Below, one piece after another: positions 1-22,863 of a stretch of DNA of 64,000 bases. The notes under the pieces are model-generated. The model ran no database searches. It worked only from the letters and a program-made list of their open reading frames with translations, and was not told where the DNA came from. Each line of letters begins with the position of its first letter. The stretch's first letter is position 1. The stretch lies in assembly GCA_052034255.1 (NCBI GenBank), contig JBPOIU010000019.1, positions 7,842 through 71,841 of the forward strand, given 5' to 3'. The position numbers were made by a program, and so were the translations under genes. The DNA is from Planctomycetota bacterium. GTDB taxonomy: Bacteria; Planctomycetota; B15-G4; JADJEK01.

Positions 1-2806
<2,806 letters not shown>

Positions 2807-2842
2807 GGGAACGATCGAACGCTCGACGAGCGCGCGTGCCGA

Positions 2843-5836
2843 TCACGAGCCCAACACCCAACCGTCGCAGACGAACGATCCCCAGGTCCTGACCCCGTCA
2901 TGCAATTCGCCGCGCACCCGCGCATCCGCGAGCGAGTCGAGCTTCGCACGTCGCAACGCCATCGCCGGTGGCTCGCGGCGCGTCCAGACGCCTTCATAGA
3001 AGCGCCGCACGAACTCGGCCGTCGCGTCGTCCGGAATCGGCCAGAGCGAACCGATCACGTGCCTCGCACCGGCCTGTCGCAGCGACCGACGCAACCCGAG
3101 CACGCCCTCGCCGAGCGTCGGCGTTCCCGCTCCGGATGAACACGCAGCGAGGAACACCAAATCCGCAGCCCGAAGATCGAGCCAACTCGCGTCGAAGTCC
3201 GTCACCGACGAACACCCCTCGCCATCGACTTCGGGTGCCAGAACGAGACCTGAACGAGCGAACGCCGCGGACGTCCCTGAGCGGAAGAACCCATGGGTTG
3301 CCAGATGAACGAAGCGCCGGCCACCCACGGCCCCACGGAACATCGATGCGCACGCTCCGCGGCCGCTGAGAACGAGGCGCTCACCTGCGTCGGCGAACTC
3401 GCGCGCGTGCAACGCTTGAACTAGATCGACCTCGCGGCGCGTTCCGGAAAGAGCTCCCCACTCCCCCGCGTAGTCCACTTCGCCCACGATGAGTGCAGAA
3501 GGAGGCACGTCGTCACCGATCGGTGGCGGCGGCGGGGTGCCGAAGTCGGACACGAAACAGACTTCGATCGCTTCGACGAGATGTCGACCGTCGGCGAGCA
3601 GCAGCGCGTCGAGCGGCGCCGCTGCGAGTGCACCGTCGGGCGCGACGATCCAGCGGGTCGCGCCAGGCGCCGCGCGCAACAGCGGATCCACCAGTCGGGA
3701 TCCGAGAGCGCGAAGGCTCGCGGCCAGCGCATCTGGGCGCGGCGTTCCCACCGTGTCGCCGCCAGCGACCTGGACAGCCTTCCCCCGCGAACGATTCGAT
3801 CCGAACAGCTCGCCGATCCGAGCGACATCACCGTCGATCGCCACGGCATCGCCGAGTTCCACGGTCGTCACACCAGGCTCGTCCGAGCGCACCACGAACG
3901 CCACGTACTCATCGCGAAGACCGCTCGCAGTTTCCTCCGATCCCTCGCCGCGAGGAATCCAACGACGGATTCGCATGACGTCGACGGCGGCCGTTCCGCG
4001 AGGGAGCGACGCGCGCAGTCGCGCGACGTCGAGAACGTCGCTTGCGAGCTGCGGAGCCGCCGCCGCGAACTCCGCCTCGGCGCGCTCGACCTCCGTACGA
4101 CGCTGCTCCCGTTCGGCGGTCTCGTCTCGGCTGGTCCGGTCCGACCGCATCGCGGCAATCGCACTCCGTACCCGGGAGGCCTCGACCTTGGCCGCTCGAC
4201 GCGCGAGCTCTCCGGTCACGTCGCGCGTCATCGCTTCGCGTTCGATGGCGAGGCGGCGCACGACGCGACCCTTGAACGCGAGCGCCTGGTCGTACGCTCG
4301 CTCGATCGCCTCCGCGCGACCCACGCGCAGCGCGAACGCGATGCTCAGGTCGACGAGTTCGCGGTACTCCGCGACGATCTCCAGCCGTTCGCGCTCCGAT
4401 TGCGCGAGCATCGAGCGATCCAACACGGAATCGAGTGTGGCAAGGCTCGTCGACGCGCGGCGTGATGCGGCCTCGACCTGACCACACTCCGCGAGACCCA
4501 ACGCCACCGCACTCTCGAGCCGTGTCGAGAAGAAGCCCGGAGTGAACGTGCGCTCTTGCTCCAGAGCGCACTCCAGGTACTCGAGTGCATCATCCGGGCG
4601 ACCCAACGCTTGAGCGACTCGACCGAGCAGATGGGCGTGTGGATCAGGCCCTGCTTGGCGATCATCGGCGAACTCACACCAGCGCTCGAACAGTGCGCGG
4701 ACCTCGTCCATCGATCCGTCAGCGCGGTGGCGAGCCAGTGCGTCGGCGAGTGCGATCCCGACACCCCGCCGTGCTTCGTTCGGGATGTCCGGTCGTCGTT
4801 CGACCACAGCATATGCCCGCCGCATCGCGGCGACCGCTTCGTCGGAGCGACCTTCTCTTGCGAAACACAGCGATAAGGTCGTGAGCACGGCTGAAAACGC
4901 TAACGGTGCCTTCGACTCCCACGACTCGCCCACATCGTCGACCAAAGCTTGGACCAGCGACAGTGCTTCCGCATGCCGACCACGGAGCGAGAGTACCTGC
5001 GACACGACGAGGGTTGCGACTGCACGAGGAAAACACGGGGATGATCGGGCGGCGTTTCGCTCCGCGACCTCGAGGAAGAGATCGCCGCGCACGAGGTCGC
5101 CACGGTTGAACAGGTGCATCGCAATCGTGCTGGCGAAGCCACCGAACGGCTCGGCGGACACCGTGTCGACGGCGTGGTCGATCCCGATCTCTTGGAGGCA
5201 AACATCGATGTCGGTCCTGGTCTGGAAAATCGAGCCGGATCGTCCTTGATCGTCGAGCTCTTGCCAGAGTGCGACGAGACAGCCCGGCGCTTGCGCAATT
5301 TCCATGTACCGCCCCAGCTCGTCCGCACCTGGGCCGCCATCGGGAGCAGCAAACAGAAGTTCGTCGATTCCCCAGCCACGCATCGAGTCCCGCCACCGCA
5401 ACTCGGGAGCAAGATGCGCCCGATCGACGCGTACACGCGCGCCGCCGATCCCGCCTCCGCTCGCACCGACGAACAGCTTCATCCGCGTGGGCGCGGAGGC
5501 CACGTTCAATTCGAGCTTGGCCGTGTCGGATGCGGAATTCGCGATCGAGGCTCTTGTTGCTTTCCCGTCGTCATCGACGACAGCAACGCCCGCGGCATAC
5601 GAGAGCGCCATCACTTCGACGACGTAGACGCCAGGCTCCGCCACCAGCACTTCGACGACGCGGCCTCGCAGGGACGTCGCAGGACCACCTGGAAGTTCGA
5701 TGTTCAGCAGCGACGACGTCCGTGACACGACGATCGTCTTGGATCGCCCTGGCACAATCGATGGGTCGTCGACCGCGAACAGGAGGAATACACACAGCCA
5801 GACCTGTGCGAGGGTGCTCACGGAGCAACGCCTCAA
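2843..5836 (-). CDS. Exported CHAT-domain (caspase-like Cys/His protease) protein with TPR-like helical repeats
   Basis: The N-terminus is signal-peptide-like (MRRCSVSTLAQVWLCVFLLFAV). The C-terminal CHAT signature has a His box (FVHLATHGFF) and a Cys box (LVFLAACSSGAG). The central region is alpha-helical and repeat-rich, 997 aa in total. Confidence 0.8.
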   Translation of the reverse strand: MRRCSVSTLAQVWLCVFLLFAVDDPSIVPGRSKTIVVSRTSSLLNIELPGGPATSLRGRVVEVLVAEPGVYVVEVMALSYAAGVAVVDDDGKATRASIANSASDTAKLELNVASAPTRMKLFVGASGGGIGGARVRVDRAHLAPELRWRDSMRGWGIDELLFAAPDGGPGADELGRYMEIAQAPGCLVALWQELDDQGRSGSIFQTRTDIDVCLQEIGIDHAVDTVSAEPFGGFASTIAMHLFNRGDLVRGDLFLEVAERNAARSSPCFPRAVATLVVSQVLSLRGRHAEALSLVQALVDDVGESWESKAPLAFSAVLTTLSLCFAREGRSDEAVAAMRRAYAVVERRPDIPNEARRGVGIALADALARHRADGSMDEVRALFERWCEFADDRQAGPDPHAHLLGRVAQALGRPDDALEYLECALEQERTFTPGFFSTRLESAVALGLAECGQVEAASRRASTSLATLDSVLDRSMLAQSERERLEIVAEYRELVDLSIAFALRVGRAEAIERAYDQALAFKGRVVRRLAIEREAMTRDVTGELARRAAKVEASRVRSAIAAMRSDRTSRDETAEREQRRTEVERAEAEFAAAAPQLASDVLDVARLRASLPRGTAAVDVMRIRRWIPRGEGSEETASGLRDEYVAFVVRSDEPGVTTVELGDAVAIDGDVARIGELFGSNRSRGKAVQVAGGDTVGTPRPDALAASLRALGSRLVDPLLRAAPGATRWIVAPDGALAAAPLDALLLADGRHLVEAIEVCFVSDFGTPPPPPIGDDVPPSALIVGEVDYAGEWGALSGTRREVDLVQALHAREFADAGERLVLSGRGACASMFRGAVGGRRFVHLATHGFFRSGTSAAFARSGLVLAPEVDGEGCSSVTDFDASWLDLRAADLVFLAACSSGAGTPTLGEGVLGLRRSLRQAGARHVIGSLWPIPDDATAEFVRRFYEGVWTRREPPAMALRRAKLDSLADARVRGELHDGVRTWGSFVCDGWVLGS

Positions 5837-6879
5837 CGAGCTTCGGTGACGTTCGCTTCGACACGCTCTAAACGAAGGCGACGCGTGACCGCAAAACTCG
5901 TCGATTGACCGCCCGGCATACTCATCTCGCCCGAGACCGACTGATCAAGTTCCAGAGCGATGGGAAGACCGGTCGAGCAATCCACACGCTGAGTTCCGAG
6001 GAACGCCCCCCCGGTGACTCGCATGGTTTTCAGCAGGCGAAACGCGTCCTTCAAGTCAGGGACGAGCGGCGCCTCCGAGTCACTTTGTTCATGCTGCGCA
6101 TCCGTCGTTTCTTGCGGCCCAACTTCGCTCGAAACGTCGGCGTCACCGGCAAAGCCGATCGTCGCTATGCGGGTCGCTGCGTCGTAGCCCTCGATCGCCG
6201 CAGTGACCTCGACCGCGATCGCGGGGGTTCCGTTGCCGAGCGAAGGCAACATGCGCCGGCATGTCCATGGCTCGCCGATCGCTCGCGGACTCGGCGGCAG
6301 GATCGGCATGAGACATTGGAACTCGGTGTCCTTGACCTCCTCGATGAGTGCGCCACTCAGCGATCCCCAGTCGTCGATCAACTCCTCTCCGTAGAACTCT
6401 TGCAGTCCTTCGATGCTTCGGATTTGTCCGGTAGGAGCCACGACGCACGTCAAAGATCGATCGTCTGCGTGGCGGAGCATCGTCCTCACGAGCATCGACG
6501 CTGGCGCAGGCACGTTGGGATCGTCGTCGGATCGCGAGTCGAACTCAGCGTCGCGCATCAGCGTCGCCCGCACCTTTCCCGACGTGCGCTCGAAGACGAT
6601 GACGACCTTCGTCGCGCGTTCGACGTCGCTCGCATCACCCGCCTCAGGAGCCGCGCTCAGTCGCAGGCGCTGCTCGTAGTCGCACGAGGTATCCACCCGA
6701 AAACCCTGCCCATTCGGCATGTTCACGACGGAGGTCGTGGTGACCGAGCCCGTGTGCCGGAAGGACACTGGCTCTCGCGGTGGAACCAGCGAAATCGCGA
6801 TCGCGTCCTCGGGGGTCTCGTCGCCGACGACGGTGCCGACGATGCAGGTCACCGCGAGCAAGCACTTCACGATTCGCAT
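5833..6879 (-). CDS. Hypothetical secreted protein, translationally coupled (4-nt overlap) to the downstream CHAT protease gene
   Basis: The internal Met at 6879 is preceded by GGAG and followed by a signal peptide (MRIVKCLLAVTCIVGTVVG). Its stop overlaps the CHAT start at 5833..5836. The composition is protein-like and not Arg-rich. No family was recognised. Confidence 0.55.
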   Translation of the reverse strand: MRIVKCLLAVTCIVGTVVGDETPEDAIAISLVPPREPVSFRHTGSVTTTSVVNMPNGQGFRVDTSCDYEQRLRLSAAPEAGDASDVERATKVVIVFERTSGKVRATLMRDAEFDSRSDDDPNVPAPASMLVRTMLRHADDRSLTCVVAPTGQIRSIEGLQEFYGEELIDDWGSLSGALIEEVKDTEFQCLMPILPPSPRAIGEPWTCRRMLPSLGNGTPAIAVEVTAAIEGYDAATRIATIGFAGDADVSSEVGPQETTDAQHEQSDSEAPLVPDLKDAFRLLKTMRVTGGAFLGTQRVDCSTGLPIALELDQSVSGEMSMPGGQSTSFAVTRRLRLERVEANVTEAR

Positions 6880-7333
6880 GTTCTGCTCCGTTCGAAGTTC
6901 GCGCCACCGTGGCACAGTCGTTCGCGATGCGTTGCGGCACACTGCGTGATGATCGTGCTGAACGCGAAGTGCCGCCAACCGCACTCAGGAACCGTGTCGG
7001 ACTGTGCCACTGAAGCCCATTCTCTGCCTCACCGTGATCGATCGACGTCACGGGGGACTCCTGCTCCGCCGTAGGCCGCGAGAATCTCGCAGTTCGCGCG
7101 TTTGGACGCAAGCTCCCGCGCATGGACGTGGCCGCCGCGGACGACGATCCGTTTGCGGCGCGCATTCGAACCTCGCGTCACTGCACGCCGCAGCCGCCCC
7201 GCACCACGATTTCCGCGAACTCCTGCATCCACTCGCCGGCGCCCTTCGATCCTCCCGATGACGTGACTCGCGGCGCATGGCGTCGCTCGCGTCGAACTCG
7301 ATCCATCGATCACCCCCAAAGAAGGAATACCCC

Positions 7334-8257
7334 ATGTTCACGCTCGCCATCTTGATGGCGACGGCAGCGTTGCCGTCGGATTGCTCGTCCAAGCCCAACC
7401 TCGCTCCCGTCGTCCACGTCGCCGCGGCACAGCGCGCCGGTGACATCGTCGACACCGCCGTCGCGGCCGGTGACTTCTCGACGCTGGTCGCGGCGGTGAA
7501 GGCCGCGGACTTGGTCGGCACGCTGAAGTCGGAAGGTCCGTTCACCGTGTTCGCGCCGACCGATGCTGCGTTCGCCGCGTTACCAAAAGGCACGCTCGAG
7601 AGCCTGCTGAAGCCCGAGGCCAAGAACACCCTGACGTCGATCCTGACCTATCACGTCGTCGCCGGACGGTTCGACGCGGCGGCGGTGCTGGGCTCGCGCT
7701 CGCTCGCGACCGTGAACGGGCAGCGCCTCGACGTATCGAAGCGCGGCGACGTCGCGATGATCGACGGCGCGAAGATCGTGAAGACCGACATCGTGTGCTC
7801 GAACGGCATCATCCACGTCATCGACGCGGTCGTGATGCCGAGCATGGACTCGATCGTCGCGACGGCGTCGGCCGCCGGCAGCTTCCGCACGTTGCTCGCC
7901 GCGGCGACTGCGGCGGGCCTCGCCGAGACGCTCGGCAAGGACGGTCCGTTCACGGTGTTCGCGCCGACGGACGCTGCGTTCGGGGCGCTGCCGAAGGGCA
8001 CGGTCGAAGACCTGCTGAAGCCCGAGAACAAGGATCGCCTGGTCGCGATCCTGAAGCTCCACGTCGTCTCGGGCCGCGTCGACTCCGCGGCGGCCGTCGC
8101 AGCCGGTGAGGCGAAGACGCTGCAAGGCTCGACGCTGCGCATCACGAGCAAGGACGGCAACGTGATGGTCGGCGGCGCGACGGTCTCGTCGGCCGACCTC
8201 GACGCCAGCAACGGCATCATCCACGTCATCGATCAGGTGCTGTTGCCGCAGGCCTGA
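7334..8257 (+). CDS. Fasciclin (FAS1) domain protein, two tandem FAS1 domains, lipoprotein/secreted
   Basis: There is an RBS (AAGAAGGAA) before the ATG at 7334 and an N-terminal signal ([18 protein letters not shown]). Two FAS1 domains are present, the first spanning [24 protein letters not shown] and the second from the next [28 protein letters not shown] onward. Confidence 0.85.
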
Positions 8258-8275
8258 ACGGCGGACGGCGCCGCG

Positions 8276-8317
8276 CGACGACACGACCGGGCGAACACTC
8301 GTCCGGTCGTGTCGTCG
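8276..8317 (+). terminator. GC-rich hairpin (15-bp perfect stem, 12-nt loop) downstream of the fasciclin gene; candidate intrinsic terminator
   Basis: cgacgacacgaccgg gcgaacactcgt ccggtcgtgtcgtcg is read directly from the sequence and is followed by tgtt. The U-tract is weak. Confidence 0.35.
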
Positions 8318-8447
8318 TGTTCGCGCGAATCGCGCGCGGCGCGAAACCGCGGCGAGCGGCCGGCATCGCATCGGGTTCGAACTCGCGCGTGGACTTCGGG
8401 CGCACGGTCGCCTTGAATCCACGCTTCACCGACGAAAGGCGAACCCG

Positions 8448-8780
8448 ATGACGAACCACTATCACGACCCCGCCGACATGGGCTTGATGAAGCAGATGAA
8501 GGAACTCGCTCCGGTCGAGTTCAAGGCGTGGGTCGAACTCAACAAGATCTCGTCGCGCGAGGACGGCGCGATCCCGAAGAAGTACCGCGAGCTGATCTGC
8601 CTCGCGCTCGCACACGCGACGCAGTGCCCGTACTGTATCGAAGCGCACGCGAAAGGCGCGAAGGCCGCGGGAGCGACGCGCCAGGAAGTCGTCGAATCGA
8701 CCTTCCTCGCGGCATCGATGATGGCGGGCGGAGCGGCCGCGCACGGCGCGATGGCGCTGAAGCTGTTCGACCAGGCCTGA
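8448..8780 (+). CDS. Carboxymuconolactone decarboxylase / AhpD-like peroxidase-related family protein
   Basis: The 110-aa product has the AhpD-core CxxxH motif (CPYCIEAH) and an RBS (GAAAGG) upstream. Confidence 0.8.
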   Translation: MTNHYHDPADMGLMKQMKELAPVEFKAWVELNKISSREDGAIPKKYRELICLALAHATQCPYCIEAHAKGAKAAGATRQEVVESTFLAASMMAGGAAAHGAMALKLFDQA

Positions 8781-8785
8781 AAACG

Positions 8786-8831
8786 GGTCAGCCCCCGTGG
8801 CCTCGAACGACGGGGCGCACGGGGGCTGACC
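8786..8831. terminator. Hairpin between the convergent AhpD-like (+) and redoxin/cytochrome (-) genes; candidate bidirectional terminator
   Basis: ggtcagcccccgtg, an 18-nt loop, then cacgggggctgacc: a 14-bp perfect inverted repeat. Confidence 0.35.
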
Positions 8832-8834
8832 GCT

Positions 8835-10625
8835 TCAGTCGAGCTGCGTGCCGTTCTTCGCGTCGACGTCGAGCGCGAGGTCCTCGGCTTCTTCGACGTA
8901 GAAGAAGAAGCCGTACATCATCTCGTCCGTCGTCTGCCGGCCGAACTTCACGGTCGCGGACGGATCGGGATTGAACACGTTGAACGCCGAGTTGTCGAAG
9001 TGCGCCGTCACGTCGATGCGCGTGCCGGCGGGGAAGAACTTGCCTTCGCGCGGGTAGCGATAGGACTGCTGCCACTCGAAGTCGTAGTTCGGCACCACGA
9101 GCAGCGTCTCGCGCGCGCCGTCCGGCGTGTTCGCGACGAAAGTCATGTCGCGTCCGCGCAGATGCATGTGGACGAACACGCCGACCGCGCGCGAATCGGC
9201 CTTCAGCGTTCTCGACGCGTTCACGGCATGAGCTTCCGCACCCGGTGGGATCGCGAAGCGGAAGTCGGCGATCTGGTGGCAATGCAGCCGCTTGCGCACC
9301 TTCGTCTTCGGGAAGCGCAACGCGACCGAGACCTCGTCGACCTCGGGCTTGCCCGACGTCACGTAGTGGATCTCGGCGCCGAGGACCGAACCCGCCGGGA
9401 TCAACACCGCGGTCCCGGGATCGAGATCCATCGGATCGCCGCCGGGCACGAGGCCGGTGATGAAGTTCTCCATCTTGAACTTCTGGCCGAGCTCGTAGAA
9501 CGCGAGGTTGCAGTGGTGCAGGACGCGCGGGTTCGCGCCCTTGATCTCGACGGCCTCGACCCACGTGTCCTCGGTGAACAAGTGCGGGAACACCGTGTAG
9601 TGGTACGGGACGATCCCGCTCGCAGGCAACTCCGCGCGCCCGAGCTGAGTCAGCACGAGATCGGGCTCACCGATGCGCCATTCGCGTGGCGCGAACGTCG
9701 GCGCGGGCGGAGCGCGATCGAGGTCGCCGACCGGCGCGCCTTGCGCCGCGAACGCTTCGAGCGTCCGGATCTCGCGATCCTCGAGCCCGCGATGATTTGC
9801 GAAGTCCTCGCTGCCCGTCGTGCCGAACCATGGCGGCATGCGCTTCTGGCGCACGACCTCCGCGATCATCGCCGCGCGCTTCGCGACGTCCTCGTACGCG
9901 ACCAGCGCGAACGGTCCCTGCCCGCCGTCGTGATGACACTCGGCGCAATGACGATGCATGAGCGGCGCGACGTCCTGCGACCACGTCACCGGCGTCGCCG
10001 GCGGGGCCGGGCGCTCGAGCGTGAGCACGCATCCCTCGACCGGAGTCTCGGCCACGCGCACCTTCCCATTCGCGAGCACGTCGTCGATCGCCTCGCGCAA
10101 GTCCGCGCGCCCCGCACGCGCGGCCGTTCCCGTCACACGCGTGCTCGCGTCGACGCGACCGCGATAGCGCAGCGTCAGCGAACCATCGAGCACGACGACC
10201 TGCGGCGAGTGCGTGACTCCGAGGGCTCGCGCCGCCGCCATCTTCGGATCGTCGAGTACCGGCACGATCACGCCGTGCGCGAGCGCGAACGTCGCCGCAT
10301 CGGCGACCGTCTCGTTCGGATCGGCGTTCACGAGCGCGAACCGCACGCCGCGTTCGCGATACGTCGCCGCCAGCTCGGCGATGCGCGGCATGGCTTTGCC
10401 GGCCAGCGGACACTCGCACGTCGTGAACACGAGCACGAGCGCTCGGTCGACCGCGAACTCGTCGAGCGTCCGCGGCAAATAGCGCTGATCGAGCAGCGCG
10501 AACGGACCGGGCTTCGCGCCGATCGCGCAGGCGCGAGGCTCCTCGATCGACGCAGCGCCCGCGAGCGCCAGGGCCACGAACCACGAAACGCTCACGGCGA
10601 GGGCACGTCGCGCACGATCCACCAC
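8835..10625 (-). CDS. Exported multidomain redox protein: thioredoxin-like (redoxin) domain, mono-haem cytochrome c, and a copper type II ascorbate-dependent monooxygenase (PHM/DBH)-like C-terminal domain
   Basis: The signal peptide is followed by a redoxin motif (FTTCECPLAGKAMP), a CxxCH haem site (CAECHHDGG) and paired His clusters (LHHCNLAFYE, HMHLRGRD) as expected for PHM-type copper sites. Confidence 0.65.
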   Translation of the reverse strand: MVDRARRALAVSVSWFVALALAGAASIEEPRACAIGAKPGPFALLDQRYLPRTLDEFAVDRALVLVFTTCECPLAGKAMPRIAELAATYRERGVRFALVNADPNETVADAATFALAHGVIVPVLDDPKMAAARALGVTHSPQVVVLDGSLTLRYRGRVDASTRVTGTAARAGRADLREAIDDVLANGKVRVAETPVEGCVLTLERPAPPATPVTWSQDVAPLMHRHCAECHHDGGQGPFALVAYEDVAKRAAMIAEVVRQKRMPPWFGTTGSEDFANHRGLEDREIRTLEAFAAQGAPVGDLDRAPPAPTFAPREWRIGEPDLVLTQLGRAELPASGIVPYHYTVFPHLFTEDTWVEAVEIKGANPRVLHHCNLAFYELGQKFKMENFITGLVPGGDPMDLDPGTAVLIPAGSVLGAEIHYVTSGKPEVDEVSVALRFPKTKVRKRLHCHQIADFRFAIPPGAEAHAVNASRTLKADSRAVGVFVHMHLRGRDMTFVANTPDGARETLLVVPNYDFEWQQSYRYPREGKFFPAGTRIDVTAHFDNSAFNVFNPDPSATVKFGRQTTDEMMYGFFFYVEEAEDLALDVDAKNGTQLD

Positions 10626-11896
10626 AGTTCGCGCTCCTTGCGCACACCGAAAGCGACGGTCGAACCATCGCTCGAGAACACGGGCGGACCGGCGAAGTCG
10701 TAGGTCTCGTCACCGCCGACGCCGTCGACCACGATCGACCAGCGGTCGTCGTCGCGCGCAGCGTACGCGACGTGCGATCCATCGTGCGACAAGGTCAGTC
10801 CGGCGATGCGCTGGTGGCGCAGCTTGGCTTCAGTCCCCGCCACGACGACGAACCACGAACCGCCGCGCACGGAATCTTCGCCGAACCGCTGCGTGATCCA
10901 CTCGCGCTCGACCGTCGAGCCCTCGACCGCGACGTGCGCGAGGCGCTTGCCGTCGGCCGACCAGACCGGGCTGCAGACGAAGTCGAACCAGGACTTCGGT
11001 TGGGGGTCCGCGGTCGTCGCCACGCCGAGCTTCTCACCCCGACGGACCTTGTACCCCACGACCTTCCCGTCGGGCGAGAACACGGCGCAGCCGGCCGCAT
11101 CGAACGCGGTGCGGATCGGCGAGTCGTCGACGTACACCGTGAAGTTCTGTTCGGCGGGGCCCCCGTTCGCCTCGGCTGCGAGGCCTTCGTACGCGACGCG
11201 TTTCCCATCGCGCGAAAGGGCGACGCCCTGGACCAGACCGATTCCCTTCCCGAGCAACTGCTCTTTCTTGCCGACCTTCAGCGGGAACCAGCGCCCCGCC
11301 TTCATCGCGACCGCCGCGACGATCGATCCATCGGCGCTGATCGCGGGTGGGAACGCGGTCTCGGCATCCTGGAACTTGCCGCCGGTGTGGTTCCCGATCA
11401 CGAGTTGCACGTCGGACCGCCCGTACGCGCCGTCGTCACCGATCTTGGCTCCGGGTTGCGTCCAGTACGTGAATCCGCCTTGCGGCAGCGCCGCGATCTC
11501 ACCCATCCAATCGGTTGGCTTGGACAACCCGGTGTCGGAGTAGACCCACCACCGCTCCGTCGACTTCGTCAGCTGGTTGCCGACGCGGAATCCGACCGAC
11601 TTCCCGTTGGCCGAGAACACGGGCAGCCCCGCGAAGTCGTAACCCGCGGTCGACACGCTCGAATCGATCACGGGAATCGACTTCGCGCCCTTCCATGCCA
11701 CGTAGGCCACGCGCGCTCCGTCGGCGCTGAAGACCGGATGGACGCCCACACTGCGCGACGAGCCGTCTTGATGCGGCAATGGCGGCGACGCCAGCGACAA
11801 TGCGTCGGGAATCGTCGCAAGGAGTTTCGACTCCGATGCCGAAGCCCCCTCCATCGCGACGAACAGCGCGGCACAAGCCCACCACGAACCGTGCAT
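10592..11896 (-). CDS. Periplasmic PD40/TolB-like beta-propeller repeat protein
   Basis: A signal-like N-terminus is followed by repeated xFSxDGxxxAY blades (VFSADGARVAY, VFSPDGKVVGY, VWSADGKRLAHVA, LSHDGSHVAYAA, VFSSDGSTVAFG). It overlaps the downstream gene start by 34 nt. Confidence 0.65.
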   Translation of the reverse strand: MHGSWWACAALFVAMEGASASESKLLATIPDALSLASPPLPHQDGSSRSVGVHPVFSADGARVAYVAWKGAKSIPVIDSSVSTAGYDFAGLPVFSANGKSVGFRVGNQLTKSTERWWVYSDTGLSKPTDWMGEIAALPQGGFTYWTQPGAKIGDDGAYGRSDVQLVIGNHTGGKFQDAETAFPPAISADGSIVAAVAMKAGRWFPLKVGKKEQLLGKGIGLVQGVALSRDGKRVAYEGLAAEANGGPAEQNFTVYVDDSPIRTAFDAAGCAVFSPDGKVVGYKVRRGEKLGVATTADPQPKSWFDFVCSPVWSADGKRLAHVAVEGSTVEREWITQRFGEDSVRGGSWFVVVAGTEAKLRHQRIAGLTLSHDGSHVAYAARDDDRWSIVVDGVGGDETYDFAGPPVFSSDGSTVAFGVRKERELWWIVRDVPSP

Positions 11897-11958
11897 CGTC
11901 GCGTCTCCGATCCTGCGCTCGCCTGGTCCCGGTGGCCGAAGGGTAGACTCCTCGCCCC

Positions 11959-12411
11959 ATGAACGTCGATTCCTACTCTCCCGAACCCGGGTCCGATGTC
12001 GCGATCGGCGACGGTGAAGCGCACGTCCATTCGTTCCGCTTGCGCGGTTGGCGCTGGACGCTCGGCGTGCGCGATCCCGAAGTCCTGCGCGGCCGCATCC
12101 ACTTGACGACGCGGCGCTTCGTCGTCGGCATCTCCCGTCCCGAAGGCGACCAAGTCGTCAGCGTGCCGTGGAGCGACGTGATCGAGTTCGAATCGATCGA
12201 AGGCACGCGCGCGCTCGAAACGCTGCTCGGCGCCGAGGGGCACATGCTGCACGCGGTCACGAAGCAACCGCTGCTCGTCGAGCCCGATCAGGTGTTCTTG
12301 TTCGAGGTCGAACCGACGTCGGGCGCGCAGTCGGCGCAACGACCCGAGCATTGCGCACGCTTCATCGACATCACGGACGACCTCATGGTCGACGCGTTCG
12401 GCGAAGGGTGA
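11959..12411 (+). CDS. Hypothetical protein (150 aa)
   Basis: This is an ORF with protein-like composition and no recognisable motifs. It is convergent with the ABC ATPase gene. Confidence 0.35.
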   Translation: MNVDSYSPEPGSDVAIGDGEAHVHSFRLRGWRWTLGVRDPEVLRGRIHLTTRRFVVGISRPEGDQVVSVPWSDVIEFESIEGTRALETLLGAEGHMLHAVTKQPLLVEPDQVFLFEVEPTSGAQSAQRPEHCARFIDITDDLMVDAFGEG

Positions 12412-15414: not shown

Positions 15415-18400
15415 CTATGGTGGACAGATCGTGAGCTGGAGCCCGTTCGAGAACGCCACGCCCTGGGCTTGATTCGCGTCCGGCGCCGCGGTCTGGACGA
15501 ACAACGACAAACCGGCGATGCCCGGGTCGTTCGGCAACTGCAGCTCGAACCCCGATTCGCCCTCGATCACGGGCAACACGATGAGCCCGATGAAGCCGAC
15601 CGGCCCGACCAGCAATTGCCCGCCGTAGAACGGCGTGGCGCCCGCGGTCGTCGACAAGAACATGCCGGCCACAGCCGCTCCGCCGAGGTTGAACGCCTCG
15701 ACCTCGAACAACCCACCCACGCGCGGATCCCCGTTGCCGACCAAGCCGAGCGTATGGCTCGGCGCCGCCACGAGTCCGAACGTGGTGAATCCGCATCCCG
15801 CCGGACACGATCCGCCGCCCGTCGGCACTTGCGCGTACGTGAGGATCAACCGCGGCGGTTGCCCCGACGCGACGTTGCGCGCGCTGCGCCATTGCGGGAA
15901 GACCGTCGGTGAGCCGTCGAATACCAAGCCGACATGATTGCCCGGGAGCCAGTCGGGTCGATCGACGACCGCTTGCACCAACGCCGCCAAGTCGGGTGTC
16001 GCGTACGTCGCACCGGGCAGCCACGTCGGGAACGTGTAACTGATCTGCTCGCTGGTCCAGGGCGCGAGTTGCGTGAGGGGCGTACTCGATCCGGCGACGA
16101 ACGCCGGAGCGTCACCGACATCGAACGCGCGCACGATCGCCTGCGGCGCTCCGTCTTGCTGTGCGCCCGCGACGAACTCGATCTTGGCCGACAGGATCGT
16201 CGCGCCGCTCGGCACGTTCAGCGCGAACCGCGCGCCGAGCTGCAACGGACTGAGCGTCGGTTGCTTGCCGACGCGCACGGTCGCCGGATCGGCGGCGTCG
16301 GCGTGTACGACACCGCTCGCGCTCTCGTATTGCGCGAGATCGGCGATCGCCGCGACCGGCACGTTCAGCGTCGTCGACGGCAGCAGCTGATACCGAGCGG
16401 TCAAATGCAGAGCGCCCTGCGGCGCGGTCACCGCATGCTGTCGCGCTCCACCGTCGCTCCAGCATTGGAAGGCGTACGCCTGCCCGCCGACCATCGCGAT
16501 CGCCGGGGCCTCGACGACGTGCGTGAAGCCGACGAGGCTCTCGAGCGCGGTCGGCGTCGGCGTGTTCTCCGCGTCGACCAGCAGCGGCAGACCGAATGGC
16601 TCGGTCTGGAGTCCCAACGCCGAATGTTCGGGCTCGAGTTCGACCTCGGTGGTCGTCGTGAGTCCGTCCGCGTCGGTGACGGTCAGCCGGATCACGTAAT
16701 GGGTGTCATCGGGACCATGCCCCGTCGCCGGCACGGTGAACTGACCCTGCGTCACGCCGGTCAGCGGCCCGAGGAACGGATGCTCGTGCTCGTGGTGATG
16801 CAGCATGACCTTCCACGAGAACGCGCTCGCGGGCAGCGTGCCGTCCTCGGCGTCGGTCGCGCTTCCGAGGAAGCGGATCGTGTCACCCGCAGCGTACGGC
16901 TGGCCCGGCAGCGGCGCGACGATCGACGGTACGGGCGGTGTCCCGACCGCGACGACGATCGGAGCCGACAGCGTCGTCGCGCTGCCGTCGCTGACCGCCA
17001 GTTGCGCGATCTTCAGGCCGTTCGCCGCGTAGGTGTGCAGCGGCTGCGGCAGGTTCGACGTGCCGCCGTCCCCGAACGTCCACGCATAGCTGAGCGGTTG
17101 CGGGCCGGCGTCGGGATCGAACGTCCCGGCGCTCGAGAATTGCACGGCCTGCGGTGCGGGCCCGCTGCCGCTCGCCGCGGACGCGAACACGACGGGAGCC
17201 GCGTTGCCGCCGCCCAACGCGCGGATGCGGTACAGCGCCGAGGCGTCGTTCCAACTGCCGATCGCGCCGCCGAACGTCAGGTAGTACAGCGCGCCATCCG
17301 GCCCGACGCGCATGTCGACGATCGTCCCGGCGTACGGCGGGTACAGGAACAACGGATCGGCGACGACGTCGCCGTTCGCGTCGAACACGAGCCGGCGCAT
17401 CCAGCGATTGACGAAGTCGCCGACGTAGAGGCAATCGCGGTAGCCGGCAGGGAATTGCGCCGCGCGCACGCGCGGCCCCATCGTGATCGAGCCCTGCGGC
17501 ACGAGCAGGTAGTACTCGGGATCGATGTGCTGATACGCGAAGTGCGGCTTCGCGAATCCTGAGCAATCGGCGAGGAAGCACTCGTCGGCTTCGGAATCCG
17601 GCCAGCCGAAGTTCGCGGCCGGCTGGACCAGGTTCGCTTCCTCCCACGACGTGAGATTGTTGCCGCCGACGTCGCCGATCCACATCTGCCCGGTCCGCGG
17701 ATCGACGCTCGAGCGAAACGGATTGCGCAGACCGTAGGCGAAGATCGCCGGCTTCGCGCCCGACGCTCCGACGAACGGATTGTCCGAAGGAACCGACCCG
17801 TCGTCGTTCAGGCGCAGCAGCTTGCCGTCGAACGCCGTCAGATCCTGTGCGCGCGTGGCGACGAAGTTGTCGCCGACGGTCACGTAGAGCTTGCCGTCCG
17901 CGCCGAACGCGAGCGCGCCGCCGTGATGGAAATCCGACGCCAGATGGTCGTTCTGCCAGATCAGCGTCTCGCTGAGCGGATCGACGCTCGCGCCCTGCAC
18001 CGTGAACCGCGCGACCCGGTCGCGCGGTTCGGAGGTCGTGTAGAACGCGTAGAGGTAGCCGTTCGTCACGAACTGCGGATGCGCCGCGAGGCCGACCAAT
18101 CCGCGCTCGCCGTTCGTCGTGTCGACGGCGATCTGCGCGAGCGGCGCCGCTTGCAGTTGGCCGTTCGCGTAGACCTTGATCGCTCCACCGCGTTCACCGA
18201 TCAGCAGCCGGCCGTCGGGCAGGAACTCGAGTACGGTCGGCTCGTTCAGGTTCGTCACCAATTGCGTGCGCTCGAACCCCGGCGGCAACCCGGTGTTCGA
18301 GACGACGGCAGTATGCGTCGCGTTCACCGCCCCGGACATCCACGTCGCCATCGCCGGCCCGCTGGCGATCGTGCCGGAGGGTGCGTTCGCGCCGCTCGTG

Positions 18401-19224
18401 TCGTGCGCGACGGTGCCGACACCCTCTTCGAGGCGATACGAACCGACGAGCCCCGGCGTCAGCGGCAACAGCACGCGATCGAGAGCTTCGAGCACTTGCA
18501 CATGCGAGCGCGCGACGCTCCAGATGCGGATCTCGTCGATGAAGCCGTTGAAGGCCGGGAACTGCGGCAGGTCGTGTTTCGCCGCGCCGATGACCAGGAA
18601 GCGCCCGAGAGCATCCTGCGCGCCGACGACGCCGCCGTCCGGATACGAGAGGTCCGCGGTCGACGCTCCCGCCATGCTGTGCACGTCGAGCGCGCCGTCG
18701 ACGTAGATCGCCTTCTCGCCACTGTCGCGCTCACGGACCACGGCGACGTGGTGCCACGCGCCATCGAGCACCAGCGTGTTGCCTTCCAACGTGTGCTCGT
18801 TGTCCGTCGCCGTTTGGCCACGCCCCGTGCCGAAGCGCACGAAGCCACCGGCGATCGACACCCCGAAGTCGGCGTCGCTGCCGCCGAGGATGTCGCGGTC
18901 GACGACGACGTTGCCGTTCATCCACGCGTTCGTCAGCAGATCGACGTCGCCCCCTGCGTTCGCGGTCGGGTTGTCGGCGAGGTTGCCCTTCACCCAAAAC
19001 TCGATCGTGAAGTCCCCGGCGCCGACGTCGATCGGCGTGTTCCCCGCGCTGCCCGCGACGTCGTCGTCGACCGGAATCTTGATGCGATCCCGTTGCGCGG
19101 TACCGGTGCCGAAGAAGCGGATCGAGAACGACGATGCGGACGATTGGGCCCACGAATCGCTCGCGCAGCAAAGCGCGAGCACCGCGACCGCAACCGACCT
19201 GCCGGCAGACAGGCCGAACGACAT
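15415..19224 (-). CDS. Very large exported multidomain protein: LamG/ConA-like lectin domain, PQQ-dependent sugar (glucose/sorbosone) dehydrogenase-like beta-propeller, PKD domain, and an uncharacterised ~500-aa C-terminal region
   Basis: The start is set at Met 19224 with a signal peptide (MSFGLSAGRSVAVAVLALCCASDSWAQS). The LamG-like motifs are FTIEFWVKG..LDGAWHHVAVV..YVDG. The GSDH motifs are GLVGLAAHPQF, HHGGALAFGADGKLYV and GLRNPF. The PKD motif is SYAWTFGDGGTS. Confidence 0.8.
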   Translation of the reverse strand: MSFGLSAGRSVAVAVLALCCASDSWAQSSASSFSIRFFGTGTAQRDRIKIPVDDDVAGSAGNTPIDVGAGDFTIEFWVKGNLADNPTANAGGDVDLLTNAWMNGNVVVDRDILGGSDADFGVSIAGGFVRFGTGRGQTATDNEHTLEGNTLVLDGAWHHVAVVRERDSGEKAIYVDGALDVHSMAGASTADLSYPDGGVVGAQDALGRFLVIGAAKHDLPQFPAFNGFIDEIRIWSVARSHVQVLEALDRVLLPLTPGLVGSYRLEEGVGTVAHDTSGANAPSGTIASGPAMATWMSGAVNATHTAVVSNTGLPPGFERTQLVTNLNEPTVLEFLPDGRLLIGERGGAIKVYANGQLQAAPLAQIAVDTTNGERGLVGLAAHPQFVTNGYLYAFYTTSEPRDRVARFTVQGASVDPLSETLIWQNDHLASDFHHGGALAFGADGKLYVTVGDNFVATRAQDLTAFDGKLLRLNDDGSVPSDNPFVGASGAKPAIFAYGLRNPFRSSVDPRTGQMWIGDVGGNNLTSWEEANLVQPAANFGWPDSEADECFLADCSGFAKPHFAYQHIDPEYYLLVPQGSITMGPRVRAAQFPAGYRDCLYVGDFVNRWMRRLVFDANGDVVADPLFLYPPYAGTIVDMRVGPDGALYYLTFGGAIGSWNDASALYRIRALGGGNAAPVVFASAASGSGPAPQAVQFSSAGTFDPDAGPQPLSYAWTFGDGGTSNLPQPLHTYAANGLKIAQLAVSDGSATTLSAPIVVAVGTPPVPSIVAPLPGQPYAAGDTIRFLGSATDAEDGTLPASAFSWKVMLHHHEHEHPFLGPLTGVTQGQFTVPATGHGPDDTHYVIRLTVTDADGLTTTTEVELEPEHSALGLQTEPFGLPLLVDAENTPTPTALESLVGFTHVVEAPAIAMVGGQAYAFQCWSDGGARQHAVTAPQGALHLTARYQLLPSTTLNVPVAAIADLAQYESASGVVHADAADPATVRVGKQPTLSPLQLGARFALNVPSGATILSAKIEFVAGAQQDGAPQAIVRAFDVGDAPAFVAGSSTPLTQLAPWTSEQISYTFPTWLPGATYATPDLAALVQAVVDRPDWLPGNHVGLVFDGSPTVFPQWRSARNVASGQPPRLILTYAQVPTGGGSCPAGCGFTTFGLVAAPSHTLGLVGNGDPRVGGLFEVEAFNLGGAAVAGMFLSTTAGATPFYGGQLLVGPVGFIGLIVLPVIEGESGFELQLPNDPGIAGLSLFVQTAAPDANQAQGVAFSNGLQLTICPP

Positions 19225-19455
19225 GGGGAACTCCAGGGGCGGGATACTGGAAGCGAACGGCCTGCGGGTCGAGTGCGGGCCGTTCGCCACGAATTCCTCT
19301 CGGAGGATGCCCGACCGTTCGCTCGCACGCCATGTGTTTCCTGCGGCGATCTGCGACCGCAGATCCATCGAAGCCGAGTGCCATGCTCACGGCCCCGCGC
19401 GCCGTGCGCGGATCGAGCGATTCGAGCCCACGCGCCCCGCCGAATTTTCCCCGAA

Positions 19456-22031: not shown

Positions 22032-22104
22032 GGGAGCCTCCTTCGCGTGGCCATCGACGCTCGACCGCGGACTCGCGGCAGGGGTCGGGACAAAGGTCGC
22101 CACG

Positions 22105-22149
22105 AGGAACGCAGCCTGGCCCCCCAACGAATTTCGCCCGATTTCGCCC
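22105..22149 (+). promoter_or_regulatory. Candidate ECF-type promoter (GGAAC, 17 nt, CGAA) followed by a tandem 10-bp direct repeat (ATTTCGCCC g ATTTCGCCC) upstream of the ECF sigma factor gene
   Basis: All motifs are read directly from the sequence: ggaac at 22105..22109, cgaa at 22127..22130, and atttcgccc at 22130..22138 and again at 22140..22148. The match to an ECF -35/-10 is loose and the function is an inference. Confidence 0.2.
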
Positions 22150-22233
22150 AAAGCCGCCTCGAACCCGTCCAGAGCGCAGTCGCTACTCTCGGCCCAGTTG
22201 CCGGTGCCTCGTTCTCCGGGCAGGATCGGGGCC

Positions 22234-22863
22234 ATGAGCGACGAGCCATCACCCGACCTCGAGGGATTGACGCGCGCCATCCAGGCGTGGACGGGCGGCG
22301 ACCCTGCCGCCGAACACGACGTGTTCTCACGCCTGCAGCAGGAGTTGCGAAGGATCGCGCGCGCTCAGCTCGGCGCGGAGGCGAACCGCCACACGCTGCA
22401 ACCCACGGCGCTCGTGCATGAAGCCTGGGTCAAACTGTTCCACACCGGCAACCCCGGCGTCGAAGGTCGATCGCATCTGGTCGGACTGATGGCGAAGGCG
22501 ATGCGATCGGTACTCGTCGACCACGCGCGTGCGAAGGCAGCCCAAAAGCGCGGCAGTTCGGCGCGGCCGTTGTCCCTCGATGCGACCGGGGTCGTTCGCT
22601 CCGACGACTCTGGCCTCACGGTCGAACCCGCCGACTTGCTCGTCGTCGACGAGACGATCGAGCGGCTGCGCGCGGTCGACGCAGAATTGGCTCAGGTCGT
22701 CGAACTGCGTTTCTGGGCCGGACTCACGAACGAGGACATCGCGTCCGCGCTACGCGTCCATCCACACACGGTCGAGCGTCGCTTCCAATTGGCACGGGCG
22801 TGGATGCAGCGCGAGCTGGATCGCGCGGCAACCCGCTCGCGTGACGACGGGCCGCGTGCATGA
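22234..22863 (+). CDS. ECF-family RNA polymerase sigma-70 factor
   Basis: The start is set at ATG 22234 (MSDEPSPDLEGL...). The sigma-2 region (LVHEAWVKLF) and sigma-4 region (ELRFWAGLTNEDIASALRVHPHTVERRFQLARAWM) are recognisable. The stop overlaps the kinase start in ATGA. Confidence 0.85.
   Translation: MSDEPSPDLEGLTRAIQAWTGGDPAAEHDVFSRLQQELRRIARAQLGAEANRHTLQPTALVHEAWVKLFHTGNPGVEGRSHLVGLMAKAMRSVLVDHARAKAAQKRGSSARPLSLDATGVVRSDDSGLTVEPADLLVVDETIERLRAVDAELAQVVELRFWAGLTNEDIASALRVHPHTVERRFQLARAWMQRELDRAATRSRDDGPRA

Follow-up and report, generated by a model that had tools for sequence, protein, structure and literature searches.

The two genes described here, which are located on the minus strand of a 64,000-nucleotide stretch of DNA from a Planctomycetota bacterium (hereafter the window), constitute an accessory, self-contained two-gene operon that strains acquire or lose as a whole. 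The first gene codes for a divergent relative of the DUF6263 family (the partner) and the second for a caspase-like protease composed of an N-domain, a TPR region and a CHAT domain, both of which are predicted to be exported. We tentatively favour a reading in which this accessory module operates in the cell envelope, where the variable partner and the N-domain would be matched to each other and provide a conserved protease with an interface for recognition or regulation. Both open reading frames were recovered where the original prediction had placed them, and their features are compiled in Table 1.

Table 1. Coordinates of the two-gene cassette and its features within the window.
Feature	Position (nt)	Strand	Basis
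Two-gene cassette, 4351 bp	2842..7192	.	blastn against L026-L029, junction sequences, gene maps
N-domain-TPR-CHAT protease gene, predicted exported	2843..5836	-	ORF, Pfam, fold matches to Csx29, DdvA and separase
CHAT domain, aa 706-992	2861..3721	-	Pfam, alignments; His848 at nt 3293-3295, Cys899 at nt 3140-3142
TPR/helical-repeat region, aa ~209-600	4037..5212	-	TPR_12, KLC-type profile match, AF2
Hypervariable block core: mature partner and CHAT N-domain	5200..6780	.	per-100-bp differences, dS/dN, allele identity matrices
N-domain of CHAT protein, aa ~23-208	5213..5770	-	mainly beta by sequence pattern
Signal-peptide-like N-terminus of CHAT protein	5771..5836	-	hydrophobicity, KD11 3.0
Partner gene, 348 aa, predicted exported, divergent DUF6263 relative	5833..6879	-	hhalign, homologues, AF2
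Disordered acidic loop of partner, aa 251-279	6043..6129	-	pLDDT <50; acidic insert in relatives
Signal-peptide-like N-terminus of partner, aa 1-19	6823..6879	-	identical in 4/4 alleles
Upstream region in cassette, 313 bp, presumed promoter	6880..7192	-	junction sequences

The protease comprises 997 residues if translated from the TTG at position 5836 and 992 residues from the GTG at 5821, the start used in the NCBI, Logan and JGI gene calls. The proposed 4-nt overlap of both genes (TTGA) is thus found only with the former start, whereas the latter leaves a gap of 11 nt past the partner stop; the hydrophobic N-terminus is kept with either. The 997-residue translation contains both RRFVHLATHGFF and DLVFLAACSSGAG. 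Its CHAT domain is recognized by Pfam with 160.6 bits (cut-off 24, E 7e-47), and His848 and Cys899 are invariant in five lineages that share 24-42% identity, as well as in 21 TPR-CHAT proteins. The His and Cys boxes are, at the level of sequence, intact as had been claimed. The long TPR or helical region is likewise real, as it contains one match to Pfam TPR_12 (31.6 bits, cut-off 30.1), is all-helical in the AF2 model and, in a profile of the protein's own family, matches TPRs of the kinesin-light-chain type in the PDB (aa 261-463, E 1.7e-11). The preceding N-domain, for which a Pfam search gave no match and where pLDDT falls below 50 (aa 1-203), is retained as a domain across lineages.

Foldseek searches with the CHAT protein have identified Csx29 of the type III-E CRISPR 'Craspase' as the best fold match (8eey_B, E 9e-15, TMq 0.44), followed by the periplasmic TPR-CHAT region of DdvA from Myxococcus (E 1e-12), which has the highest sequence identity among the leading matches (16%), and by separase (E 4e-11 to 3e-07). 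DdvA, whose periplasmic TPR-CHAT region has a solved structure, offers a precedent for an exported TPR-CHAT protein and has been proposed to act as site-1 protease (PMC11506125). In both proteins, an extracytoplasmic scaffold or TPR region is combined with a CHAT domain containing a His-Cys dyad over about 900 residues. Conversely, the window protein contains neither the cytoplasmic zinc anti-sigma domain nor the internal TM helix of DdvA but stands alone, with a short hydrophobic segment at its N-terminus, it carries an extra N-domain of about 180 residues and is accompanied by a dedicated DUF6263 partner gene, and the global TM-score is low (0.24-0.26) with no sequence-level PDB match. Csx29 is also a TPR-CHAT protease encoded beside a dedicated small-protein gene, whose product Csx30 it binds and cleaves. 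It is cytoplasmic and activated by the RNA-guided Cas7-11, in contrast to the window locus, where cas genes and a CRISPR array are absent from the vicinity and PADLOC defence models match neither protein, and the partner is unrelated to Csx30 and predicted to be exported. Separase shares the helical-repeat region and the CHAT-type caspase-like domain but is eukaryotic, nuclear or cytoplasmic, and far larger; its control by the tightly bound pseudo-substrate securin may serve as an analogy for the window pair, although securin is disordered and, unlike the partner as modelled, is no beta-barrel.

The case for export is based on inspection, with a single N-terminal hydrophobic segment ending in a small-x-A site as hallmark. 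In the CHAT protein, the N-terminal stretch MRRCSVSTLAQVWLCVFLLFA, followed by VDD, is the only TM-like segment, and a second stretch with KD19>1.6 (aa 60-88) falls into predicted beta-strands of the N-domain. Segments ending in small-x-A are also found in the homologues of L005, L009, L013 and L015, and in L023, where the start codon is ambiguous, a lipobox-like VLGC hints at export. The partner starts with MRIVKCLLAVTCIVGTVVG, followed by DE, and all of its DUF6263 relatives show a signal peptide or lipobox N-terminus. The signal-peptide-like N-termini assigned to both proteins in the original prediction were thus borne out, and both proteins are predicted to enter the cell envelope. Since the CHAT N-termini are devoid of a clear positively charged n-region except with the TTG start, the segment could alternatively be an uncleaved membrane anchor. 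An exported CHAT protein is less unusual than had been thought, in light of DdvA (PMC11506125) and of the closest TPR-CHAT relatives beyond the window clade, about 12 out of 19 of which begin with a signal-peptide-like segment.

The partner gene starts with the ATG at 6879, with a GGAG sequence located 7-10 nt upstream, and we consider it a real gene because homologues are present in six lineages and because dN/dS among its alleles is 0.33-0.48. Contrary to the initial view that it belongs to no recognized family, comparison of profiles by hhalign identifies it as a distant relative of DUF6263 (probability 99.7%, E 1.4e-25, 295 columns), an uncharacterized exported bacterial family with the same size and N-terminal signal peptide, although its score against the Pfam model (PF19777, 14.9 bits) is below the gathering cut-off of 26.7. 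The partner family is tiny, as a search of 1.84 billion representatives gave 16 matches at E<=1e-3, and a search of the literature collection available found no paper mentioning DUF6263. In the AF2 model (pLDDT 78.5, pTM 0.76), the partner adopts a beta-barrel-plus-helix fold, where long antiparallel strands surround a helix as in the N-barrels of the lipid-transfer proteins lipovitellin, ApoB and MTP (E ~2e-6) and, with weaker scores (to 5e-3), in LolA3 and LmcA. With TM-scores of 0.27-0.40 and identities of 8-11%, this predicted resemblance would be architectural only. The acidic loop, at whose position relatives also carry an acidic insert, would be a candidate protease-accessible segment.

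The genes are paired well beyond the window. In six lineages, all of which were found starting from the partner and not from the CHAT side, a partner gene at 20-30% identity is followed in constant order by a CHAT gene of about 1000 codons, with a spacing of 2-45 nt or a 4-nt overlap, and P0005, P0006, P0012, P0013 and P0016 are each directly upstream of an N-domain-TPR-CHAT protein of about 990-1005 residues. The original prediction had been staked on a partner conserved beside CHAT homologues and on an unsubstituted dyad, and as both were found, it stands on these two points. The strict conservation of the pair down to such low identity argues for a specific relationship. Conversely, none of three canonical DUF6263 genes examined is linked to CHAT, and compared to these members the link appears to be limited to the divergent branch. 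Other DUF6263 genes neighbour lipid-active hydrolases, either PAF-AH-like or GDSL lipase/MBOAT.

The accessory character of the pair is manifested in its presence or absence among strains that are ~99.5% identical. In L026-L029, window positions 1-2841 are joined directly to 7193-12000 at 99.0-99.5% identity in blastn comparisons, whereas the intervening sequence is missing. The 4351-bp indel starts 1 nt beyond the CHAT stop codon and ends 313 nt upstream of the partner ATG, with a boundary that is ambiguous by 4 bp due to the sequence GCCG at both ends. The GC3 of the pair is 0.73-0.74 compared to 0.83-0.93 in the genes alongside, and a promoter search in the upstream region of the cassette identified none. 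Where present, the mature partner and the N-domain exist as four discrete, old alleles of 79-84% nucleotide identity. In this hotspot, dS reaches 0.35-0.5, while the flanking sequence of these strains shows 0.02-0.05, with a recombination edge at nt ~5200 (aa ~207) at the end of the N-domain, except for allele C, where the block reaches ~4500. The CHAT domain is conserved while mature partner and N-domain, and sometimes the TPRs, vary together, although alleles A and B differ far less in the N-domain (91.6% identity) than in the partner (84%). A dN/dS below 1 in the hotspot (about 0.4) gives no proof of positive selection; the block pattern could have arisen solely through recombination with a diverged population, and the co-variation may reflect mere physical adjacency within one recombination tract.

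In our preferred explanation, a beta-barrel protein of the DUF6263 type and a TPR-CHAT cysteine protease would be placed in the cell envelope, the latter resembling separase, Craspase and DdvA but equipped with an additional N-terminal domain. The partner would bind the N-domain or TPR part of the protease, and together these would provide a conserved proteolytic effector with its specificity or regulatory module, be it a sensor, a gatekeeper or a pseudo-substrate, in analogy to the pairs of securin with separase and Csx30 with Csx29. Activation would then lead to the cleavage of the partner, of another envelope protein, or of both. The role suggested in the original prediction, either a protease with its substrate or inhibitor or a unit for periplasmic processing, would be plausible. 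Where an ECF sigma factor and a transmembrane anti-sigma factor adjoin the pair, the target would probably be the periplasmic domain of the anti-sigma factor.

This genomic context could also imply a split version of DdvA signalling, which we consider unlikely, where the exported TPR-CHAT protein would be a stand-alone site-1 protease that clips a transmembrane anti-sigma factor in its periplasmic domain to free an ECF sigma factor, with the partner as signal receptor and the sigma/anti-sigma pair of the window organism encoded elsewhere. In L013, L014 and L015, which represent two lineages of the family, a divergent ECF sigma gene resides beside the pair, accompanied in L013 and L014 by the gene for a 302-residue protein whose N-terminus is anti-sigma-like and which contains one TM helix and an outer domain of ~210 residues; the corresponding ORF of L015 is interrupted by the contig end. 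One canonical DUF6263 gene adjoins an ECF sigma and a zf-HC2 anti-sigma gene, and the likeness to DdvA, itself proposed to be self-cleaving, points in the same direction. Conversely, no sigma or anti-sigma gene adjoins the pair in the window clade, L005 and L009, the nearest ECF sigma factor in the window (21877-22863) is of a kinase-linked type and 15 kb away, the gain or loss of the cassette carries no regulator gene, and a search for an ECF-type promoter motif shared by the pair loci found none. The pair might equally be the target of the sigma factor instead of its activator.

Alternatively, the partner might be an envelope barrel that carries lipids or ligands and is no more than a substrate for maturation by the protease, or both might merely share an operon without any role in regulation or recognition, with the polymorphism as neutral debris of recombination. 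We regard this as rather improbable, although it would agree with the modelled resemblance to lipid-binding barrels, the long disordered loop, the hydrolases beside other DUF6263 genes and a dN/dS below 1. The TM-scores of the closer fold matches are low (0.36-0.40), the conserved pairing speaks for specificity, and neutrality is hard to square with four equidistant alleles, sharply delimited at the borders of domains and signal peptide, in strains that are otherwise ~99% identical.

Even less probable is a secreted CHAT effector directed against competitors or prey, with the partner as cognate periplasmic inhibitor or chaperone and the alleles as the product of an arms race. Effector-immunity loci typically show such a presence/absence polymorphism, an atypical GC3 and discrete alleles that co-vary, and both proteins look exported, but the conserved catalytic domain behind a variable N-terminus is the reverse of polymorphic toxins, the putative immunity gene is upstream, neither secretion-system genes nor recognizable delivery domains are found nearby, and PADLOC and plasmid searches gave no match. 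Finally, a CHAT protein acting inside the cell as in other CHAT systems, whose N-terminal stretch would be a membrane anchor with cytoplasmic bulk or a start-codon artefact, is highly improbable, since an n-region that is weak or absent in L005, L009 and L013, as well as in the window protein if the GTG start is used, is opposed by a hydrophobic segment, small-x-A site and acidic residues conserved in five of six lineages, by a co-transcribed partner family that uniformly bears signal peptides and by canonical signal peptides in many close TPR-CHAT relatives.

The tentative assignment as an envelope module with a matched interface between partner and N-domain thus extends the original prediction by two properties, the optional character of the cassette and the strong polymorphism of its front half, and the allele pattern suggests frequency-dependent selection imposed from outside by a variable agent, for instance a phage or competitor.

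The two genes of the cassette constitute a tightly linked conserved pair which, as judged from their sequences, encodes a TPR-CHAT protease with intact catalytic residues and a predicted DUF6263-type β-barrel. The larger protein (997 residues if initiated at a TTG) is matched by the Pfam CHAT profile PF12770 with 160.6 bits (cut-off 24, E 7.2e-47) between residues 706 and 992, a region that spans the model from end to end (287/289 positions). Both the His and Cys motifs quoted in the original prediction, RRFVHLATHGFF and DLVFLAACSSGAG, are present in this protein, and the proposed integrity of the active site is borne out by His848 (HLATHG) and Cys899 (LAACSSG), which are invariant in five family lineages and 21 TPR-CHAT proteins, as seen in an alignment with 19 generic TPR-CHAT proteins. 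The underlying family alignment, in which the window protein is joined by the proteins encoded next to the partner in four other lineages (24-42% identity), further contains an invariant, family-specific LAFKGRVxRR motif in the helical scaffold.

In this scaffold, a TPR_12 match is marginal (31.6 vs a cut-off of 30.1), and the family profile matches kinesin-light-chain-type TPR proteins over residues 261-463 (E 1.7e-11). The AF2 model of the protein (mean pLDDT 69) is good from residue ~205 on and fails for residues 1-203. In Foldseek searches with this model, the top PDB match was Csx29 of Craspase (E 9e-15, TMq 0.44), and the periplasmic TPR-CHAT region of the Myxococcus anti-sigma factor DdvA (E 1e-12; its 16% identity being the highest among the top fold matches) and separases were also among the best, with moderate TM-scores of 0.24-0.44 and E-values of 1e-8 to 9e-15 for the three kinds of proteins. 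The protein shows the separase/Craspase/DdvA-type architecture, with a TPR/helical region N-terminal to the CHAT domain and a matching overall fold. We found no sequence-level relatives of the CHAT domain in the PDB, and searches of the protein word index with CHAT alignments returned only the window clade and generic TPR-CHAT proteins. Residues ~23-208 form a separate N-domain, kept as such in all lineages, which in five lineages has no Pfam match even at E≤10. By eye it resembles a PPC domain (PF04151), an identity that we rejected in light of the missing Pfam match and an hhalign probability of 1.5% against a PPC protein.

The second open reading frame, located directly upstream, has its usable start at the ATG at 6879, which is preceded by GGAG. 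A search of the protein word index with this partner yielded only three variants of ~77% identity, and when 1.84 billion representative proteins were searched exhaustively with a profile, 16 matches reached E≤1e-3, only three of them strong; the weak full-length matches are themselves assigned to DUF6263 by Pfam. The partner itself scores below the gathering threshold of this family (PF19777; 14.9 vs 26.7 bits, E 0.022, residues 94-164 only), while hhalign relates its clade to canonical DUF6263 proteins over 295 columns with a probability of 99.7% (E 1.4e-25). Taken together, these comparisons identify the partner at the sequence level as a divergent member of the DUF6263 superfamily, so that the initial view that it matches no recognised family needs correction. 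An NCBIfam search gave no match and a literature search found no paper mentioning DUF6263. In the AF2 model of the partner (pLDDT 78.5, pTM 0.76), long strands run antiparallel, a helix of 30 residues covers aa 159-190, and an acidic loop at aa 251-279 is disordered. Its best PDB matches are the N-terminal β-barrels of lipovitellin, ApoB and MTP (E ~2e-6, TMq 0.36-0.40), with LolA3 and LmcA as weaker matches, and this likeness of the model to large lipid-transfer-protein barrels and the other matches is architectural only. A viral fold library returned only meaningless low-TM matches.

The expectation that the pairing would be conserved elsewhere was confirmed in five further lineages (P0005, P0006, P0012, P0013 and P0016), where partners of 20-30% identity are each found directly upstream of a gene of the N-domain-TPR-CHAT family encoding 990-1005 residues where complete, with spacings ranging from a 4-nt overlap to 44 nt. 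All six paired lineages were reached from the partner side. Profile scans of GTDB genomes and JGI metagenomes with alignments of the partner and the CHAT N-terminal part gave no match confirmed by tblastn, and none of three canonical DUF6263 genes examined resides next to a CHAT gene. The neighbours of these three genes (listed in the table) hint at a role of the whole DUF6263 family alongside envelope hydrolases and/or ECF signalling. At three loci (L013, L014 and L015), a divergent ECF sigma gene flanks the partner-CHAT pair; in L013 and L014 the gene after it encodes 302 residues, comprising an N-terminus that resembles anti-sigma factors, a single TM helix and an outer domain of ~210 aa, and in L015 the contig ends within the corresponding reading frame. 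Upstream of the pair in L013 we observe genes for an S41 peptidase and for a protein of 1152 aa with CarboxypepD_reg repeats; with the genes that follow the pair (see table), they make up a protease-rich envelope neighbourhood. Searches for promoter, terminator and ECF-promoter motifs revealed nothing above background and no shared motif.

Signal-peptide-like N-termini had been proposed for both proteins; they are seen by manual inspection and their equivalents are conserved in homologues. The partner starts with MRIVK followed by a 13-residue h-region and VVG preceding DE, reading MRIVKCLLAVTCIVGTVVG followed by DE, and the N-termini of all partner and DUF6263 relatives examined are signal-peptide-like or lipobox-like. 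The CHAT protein starts, under either of two start codons, with a strongly hydrophobic stretch (...LAQVWLCVFLLFA followed by VDD; h-region KD11 3.0, ending in LFA), which is its only TM-like segment, a second hydrophobic stretch at residues 60-88 being located in predicted β-strands of the N-domain. The CHAT proteins of five of the six lineages begin with a short hydrophobic segment that has a small-x-A end and is followed by acidic or polar residues. In the P0016 lineage (L023), the CHAT-family gene seems to have been called from a start that is too far downstream, and the upstream frame reads ...RLRGPLCALLGVLGC followed by ARPPEE, with a lipobox-like VLGC, which suggests a lipoprotein version of this protease; no canonical start codon was located. 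TPR-CHAT proteins that look exported are not rare in sequence space: outside the window clade, a signal-peptide-like start is seen in ~12 of the 19 closest relatives of this type. The predicted 4-nt overlap between stop and start (TTGA) holds if the CHAT protein is initiated at the TTG at 5836 but not with the GTG at 5821 used in every public gene call (992 aa), which is located 11 nt past the partner stop.

Features of the cassette, its neighbourhood and related loci (L-numbers denote other loci examined)
Feature	Location	Strand	Description
DnaE2-type Pol III alpha	window 20..2806	+	convergent neighbour of cassette
Mutasome pair upstream of cassette	window 20-2806; L025 1-3359; L026 3092-7714	+ (window)	ImuB-like (IMS) gene and DnaE2-type error-prone Pol III alpha
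Split dnaE2 of one cassette-less strain	L031 4615-7714		436-aa and 258-aa pieces, 92-aa reverse ORF between
Cassette	window 2842..7192		4351 bp
CHAT gene	window 2843..5836	-	997 aa from TTG
Partner gene	window 5833..6879	-	348 aa; full ORF 5833..6984
Two-domain fasciclin gene	window 7334..8257	+	divergent neighbour of cassette; called start 7277 (326 aa) or 7334 (307 aa)
Duplication in fasciclin gene	window 7445-8248	+	direct, ~71-73% identical, 408-nt spacing; matches the gene's two FAS1 domains
AhpC/redoxin-cytochrome c fusion	window 8835-10625	-	596 aa; N-terminal AhpC/redoxin, weak cytochrome c (cbb3-type) signal, long C-terminal part without family; overlaps next gene (PD40 beta-propeller) by 34 nt
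Laminin_G_3 protein	window 15415-19368	-	1317 aa, also with PKD and glucose/sorbosone dehydrogenase domains; in relatives, neighbours carry dockerins (L001 14795-14903)
ECF sigma-kinase pair	window 21877-26084	+	PF07638 sigma with ~130-aa N-terminal extension, 4-nt overlap with 1074-aa Ser/Thr kinase with many TPR_12/TPR_10 repeats; planctomycete-style pairing, 15 kb from cassette
CHAT-family start, P0016 lineage	L023 1380-1460		upstream frame lipobox-like
Genes following pair, P0012 lineage	L013 10109-11290; 11471-11923	-; -	exported two-PPC-domain protein; PEGA-domain protein
Canonical DUF6263 gene 1 of 3	L021 4246-7286		after divergent ECF sigma and zf-HC2/HEAT anti-sigma, before PAF-AH-like hydrolase
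Canonical DUF6263 gene 2 of 3	L016 832-7068		near sigma-like protein and FGE-sulfatase kinase
Canonical DUF6263 gene 3 of 3	L035 762-4593		adjoins GDSL lipase and MBOAT gene

The two genes are passed on, lost and diversified together. A look-up of the CMD protein encoded in the window identified sister strains (L026-L032) in which dnaE2 is directly followed by the fasciclin gene, and places where the pair is carried (L025 and five similar ones, L033 and L034). In blastn comparisons with L026-L029, exactly the segment defining the cassette is absent, with flanks that are 99.0-99.5% identical. The indel begins 1 nt beyond the CHAT stop codon, its other edge is 313 nt ahead of the partner ATG, and it is bounded only by a 4-bp GCCG repeat. 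This microhomology aside, there is no integrase or transposase, and neither the partner nor the N-terminal part of the CHAT protein matched a plasmid, so that we rejected integration of a mobile element. The composition of the cassette is atypical, since the GC3 of both genes is 0.73-0.74 vs 0.83-0.93 in neighbouring genes. Further neighbours include a CMD/AhpD gene and the AhpC/redoxin-cytochrome c fusion, and the products of neighbouring genes share at least 90% identity with proteins from MAGs labelled 'Planctomycetota bacterium', a phylum with which the ECF sigma-kinase pair (see table) is in keeping. In one cassette-less strain dnaE2 is split, which could reflect a disruption or an assembly problem.

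Variability is concentrated in the partner and in the front part of the protease, ahead of its catalytic domain. Inside a single block, 10-40 substitutions per 100 bp separate strains whose flanks are ~99.5% identical. This block begins at nt ~6780, just past the partner signal peptide, and ends at nt ~5200 (compared to L001) or ~4500 (compared to L019). It therefore covers the mature partner and the CHAT N-domain, and in one allele also most TPRs, with the edge at ~5200 corresponding to residue ~207 and thus to the end of the N-domain. The protease varies in its N-terminal third and is conserved in its catalytic C-terminus, at 99% between alleles A and B. The partner occurs in four discrete alleles, A (window, L025, L034), B (L001-L004), C (L019) and D (L020), which are roughly equidistant at 79-84% nucleotide identity; identical copies of A, and likewise of B, occur in several samples, and C and D are each found on a single contig. 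Within the block, dS amounts to 0.35-0.5 and dN to 0.13-0.19 (dN/dS 0.33-0.48), compared to a dS of 0.02-0.05 in flanking genes of the same strains, from which we infer old alleles brought by homologous recombination into a near-clonal background rather than recent hypermutation. The co-variation of partner and N-domain may reflect their mere adjacency in one recombination tract. We also considered a diversity-generating retroelement, which we rejected in view of a divergence extending over 1.6-2.3 kb, the high dS, the lack of a repeat of the variable block in the 64-kb window and of a reverse transcriptase among annotated neighbours. As the alleles look old and recombined, the mutasome pair adjoining the locus is probably a coincidence.

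To our knowledge, bacterial CHAT proteases are known almost entirely from cytoplasmic defence systems, and DdvA is the only periplasmic one that we know to have been studied, its signal and substrate not being known. The present pair appears to differ from what has been described in its dedicated DUF6263-like partner, the extra N-domain and the presence/absence and multi-allele behaviour of the cassette. It has no match among the PADLOC defence models for either protein, and we thus rejected a known defence system. Unlike in type III-E Craspase (Cas7-11, Csx29 and Csx30), there are no cas genes within ~25 kb of the cassette and, whereas the Craspase protein is cytoplasmic, the CHAT N-terminus looks signal-peptide-like. 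A literature search combining 'TPR-CHAT' and 'periplasmic' found only the paper on DdvA (PMC11506125), a periplasmic TPR-CHAT protein that has been solved, which is devoid of a three-helix active-site insert and for which its authors postulate a 'periplasmic component' (PMC11506125). In DdvA, an N-terminal cytoplasmic zinc anti-sigma domain and a TM helix precede the TPR-CHAT region, whereas here only ~22 residues precede the presumed extracytoplasmic part and there is no anti-sigma domain. Similarly, DdvA-type systems have a cognate ECF sigma gene adjacent, whereas the cassette in the window neighbours dnaE2 and the fasciclin gene, and a separate sigma gene adjoins the pair in L013, L014 and L015 only, with the anti-sigma-like gene beside it in L013 and L014.

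We propose that both proteins would have their site of action in the periplasm or the extracellular space, where the partner may bind the N-domain/TPR part of the protease, and that the partner and this part would jointly determine how a conserved proteolytic effector is regulated or what it recognises as its target. By analogy, the securin-separase and Csx30-Csx29 pairs may serve as mechanistic models and DdvA as a model for location. A role as site-1 protease is attractive in two lineages due to their ECF sigma and anti-sigma neighbours, but the cassette in the window contains no regulator gene. That the locus instead represents a split DdvA-like signalling system appears unlikely. Simple processing of the partner as substrate, with the latter being a lipid-carrier-like barrel, is unlikely; its modelled fold recalls such barrels in architecture. 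We regard an effector-inhibitor pair as very unlikely; polymorphic toxin-immunity systems combine a variable C-terminal toxin with a co-varying downstream immunity gene, whereas here the N-terminal third varies, the catalytic C-terminus is conserved and the partner is located upstream. That the CHAT protein is not exported at all is highly improbable, with an n-region that depends on the start codon chosen and a hydrophobic stretch that does not. Beyond the proposed joint control of the protease by partner and N-domain, the cassette might, in a speculative extension that we deem quite unlikely, be a periplasmic surveillance module reminiscent of innate immunity, in which the hypervariable unit of DUF6263 barrel and protease N-domain/TPRs, its alleles held by frequency-dependent selection, would sense envelope-invading phage or competitor proteins and free the conserved caspase-like CHAT effector outside the cytoplasm, with some lineages wired to ECF sigma factors via anti-sigma cleavage. 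The dN/dS of the block is below one.

The locus offers a simpler and genetically compact system, where an exported-looking TPR-CHAT protein with intact active site is combined with a dedicated partner of an uncharacterised exported family, and it comes with natural 'experiments', namely strains that carry or lack the cassette and, for the presumed interface, four sets of alleles that have diverged deeply. Were the surveillance function true, it would make the cassette a counterpart of DdvA that stands alone and is gated by a partner, supplying the 'periplasmic component' postulated for the latter. If the partner neither gates nor is cut by the protease, the locus would be an accessory envelope operon with allele turnover in an uncultured planctomycete. 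If it does either, this would define a first function for DUF6263 and the first defined substrate or regulator for envelope caspase-like proteolysis, and it would make extracytoplasmic sensing by TPR-CHAT modules directly testable.
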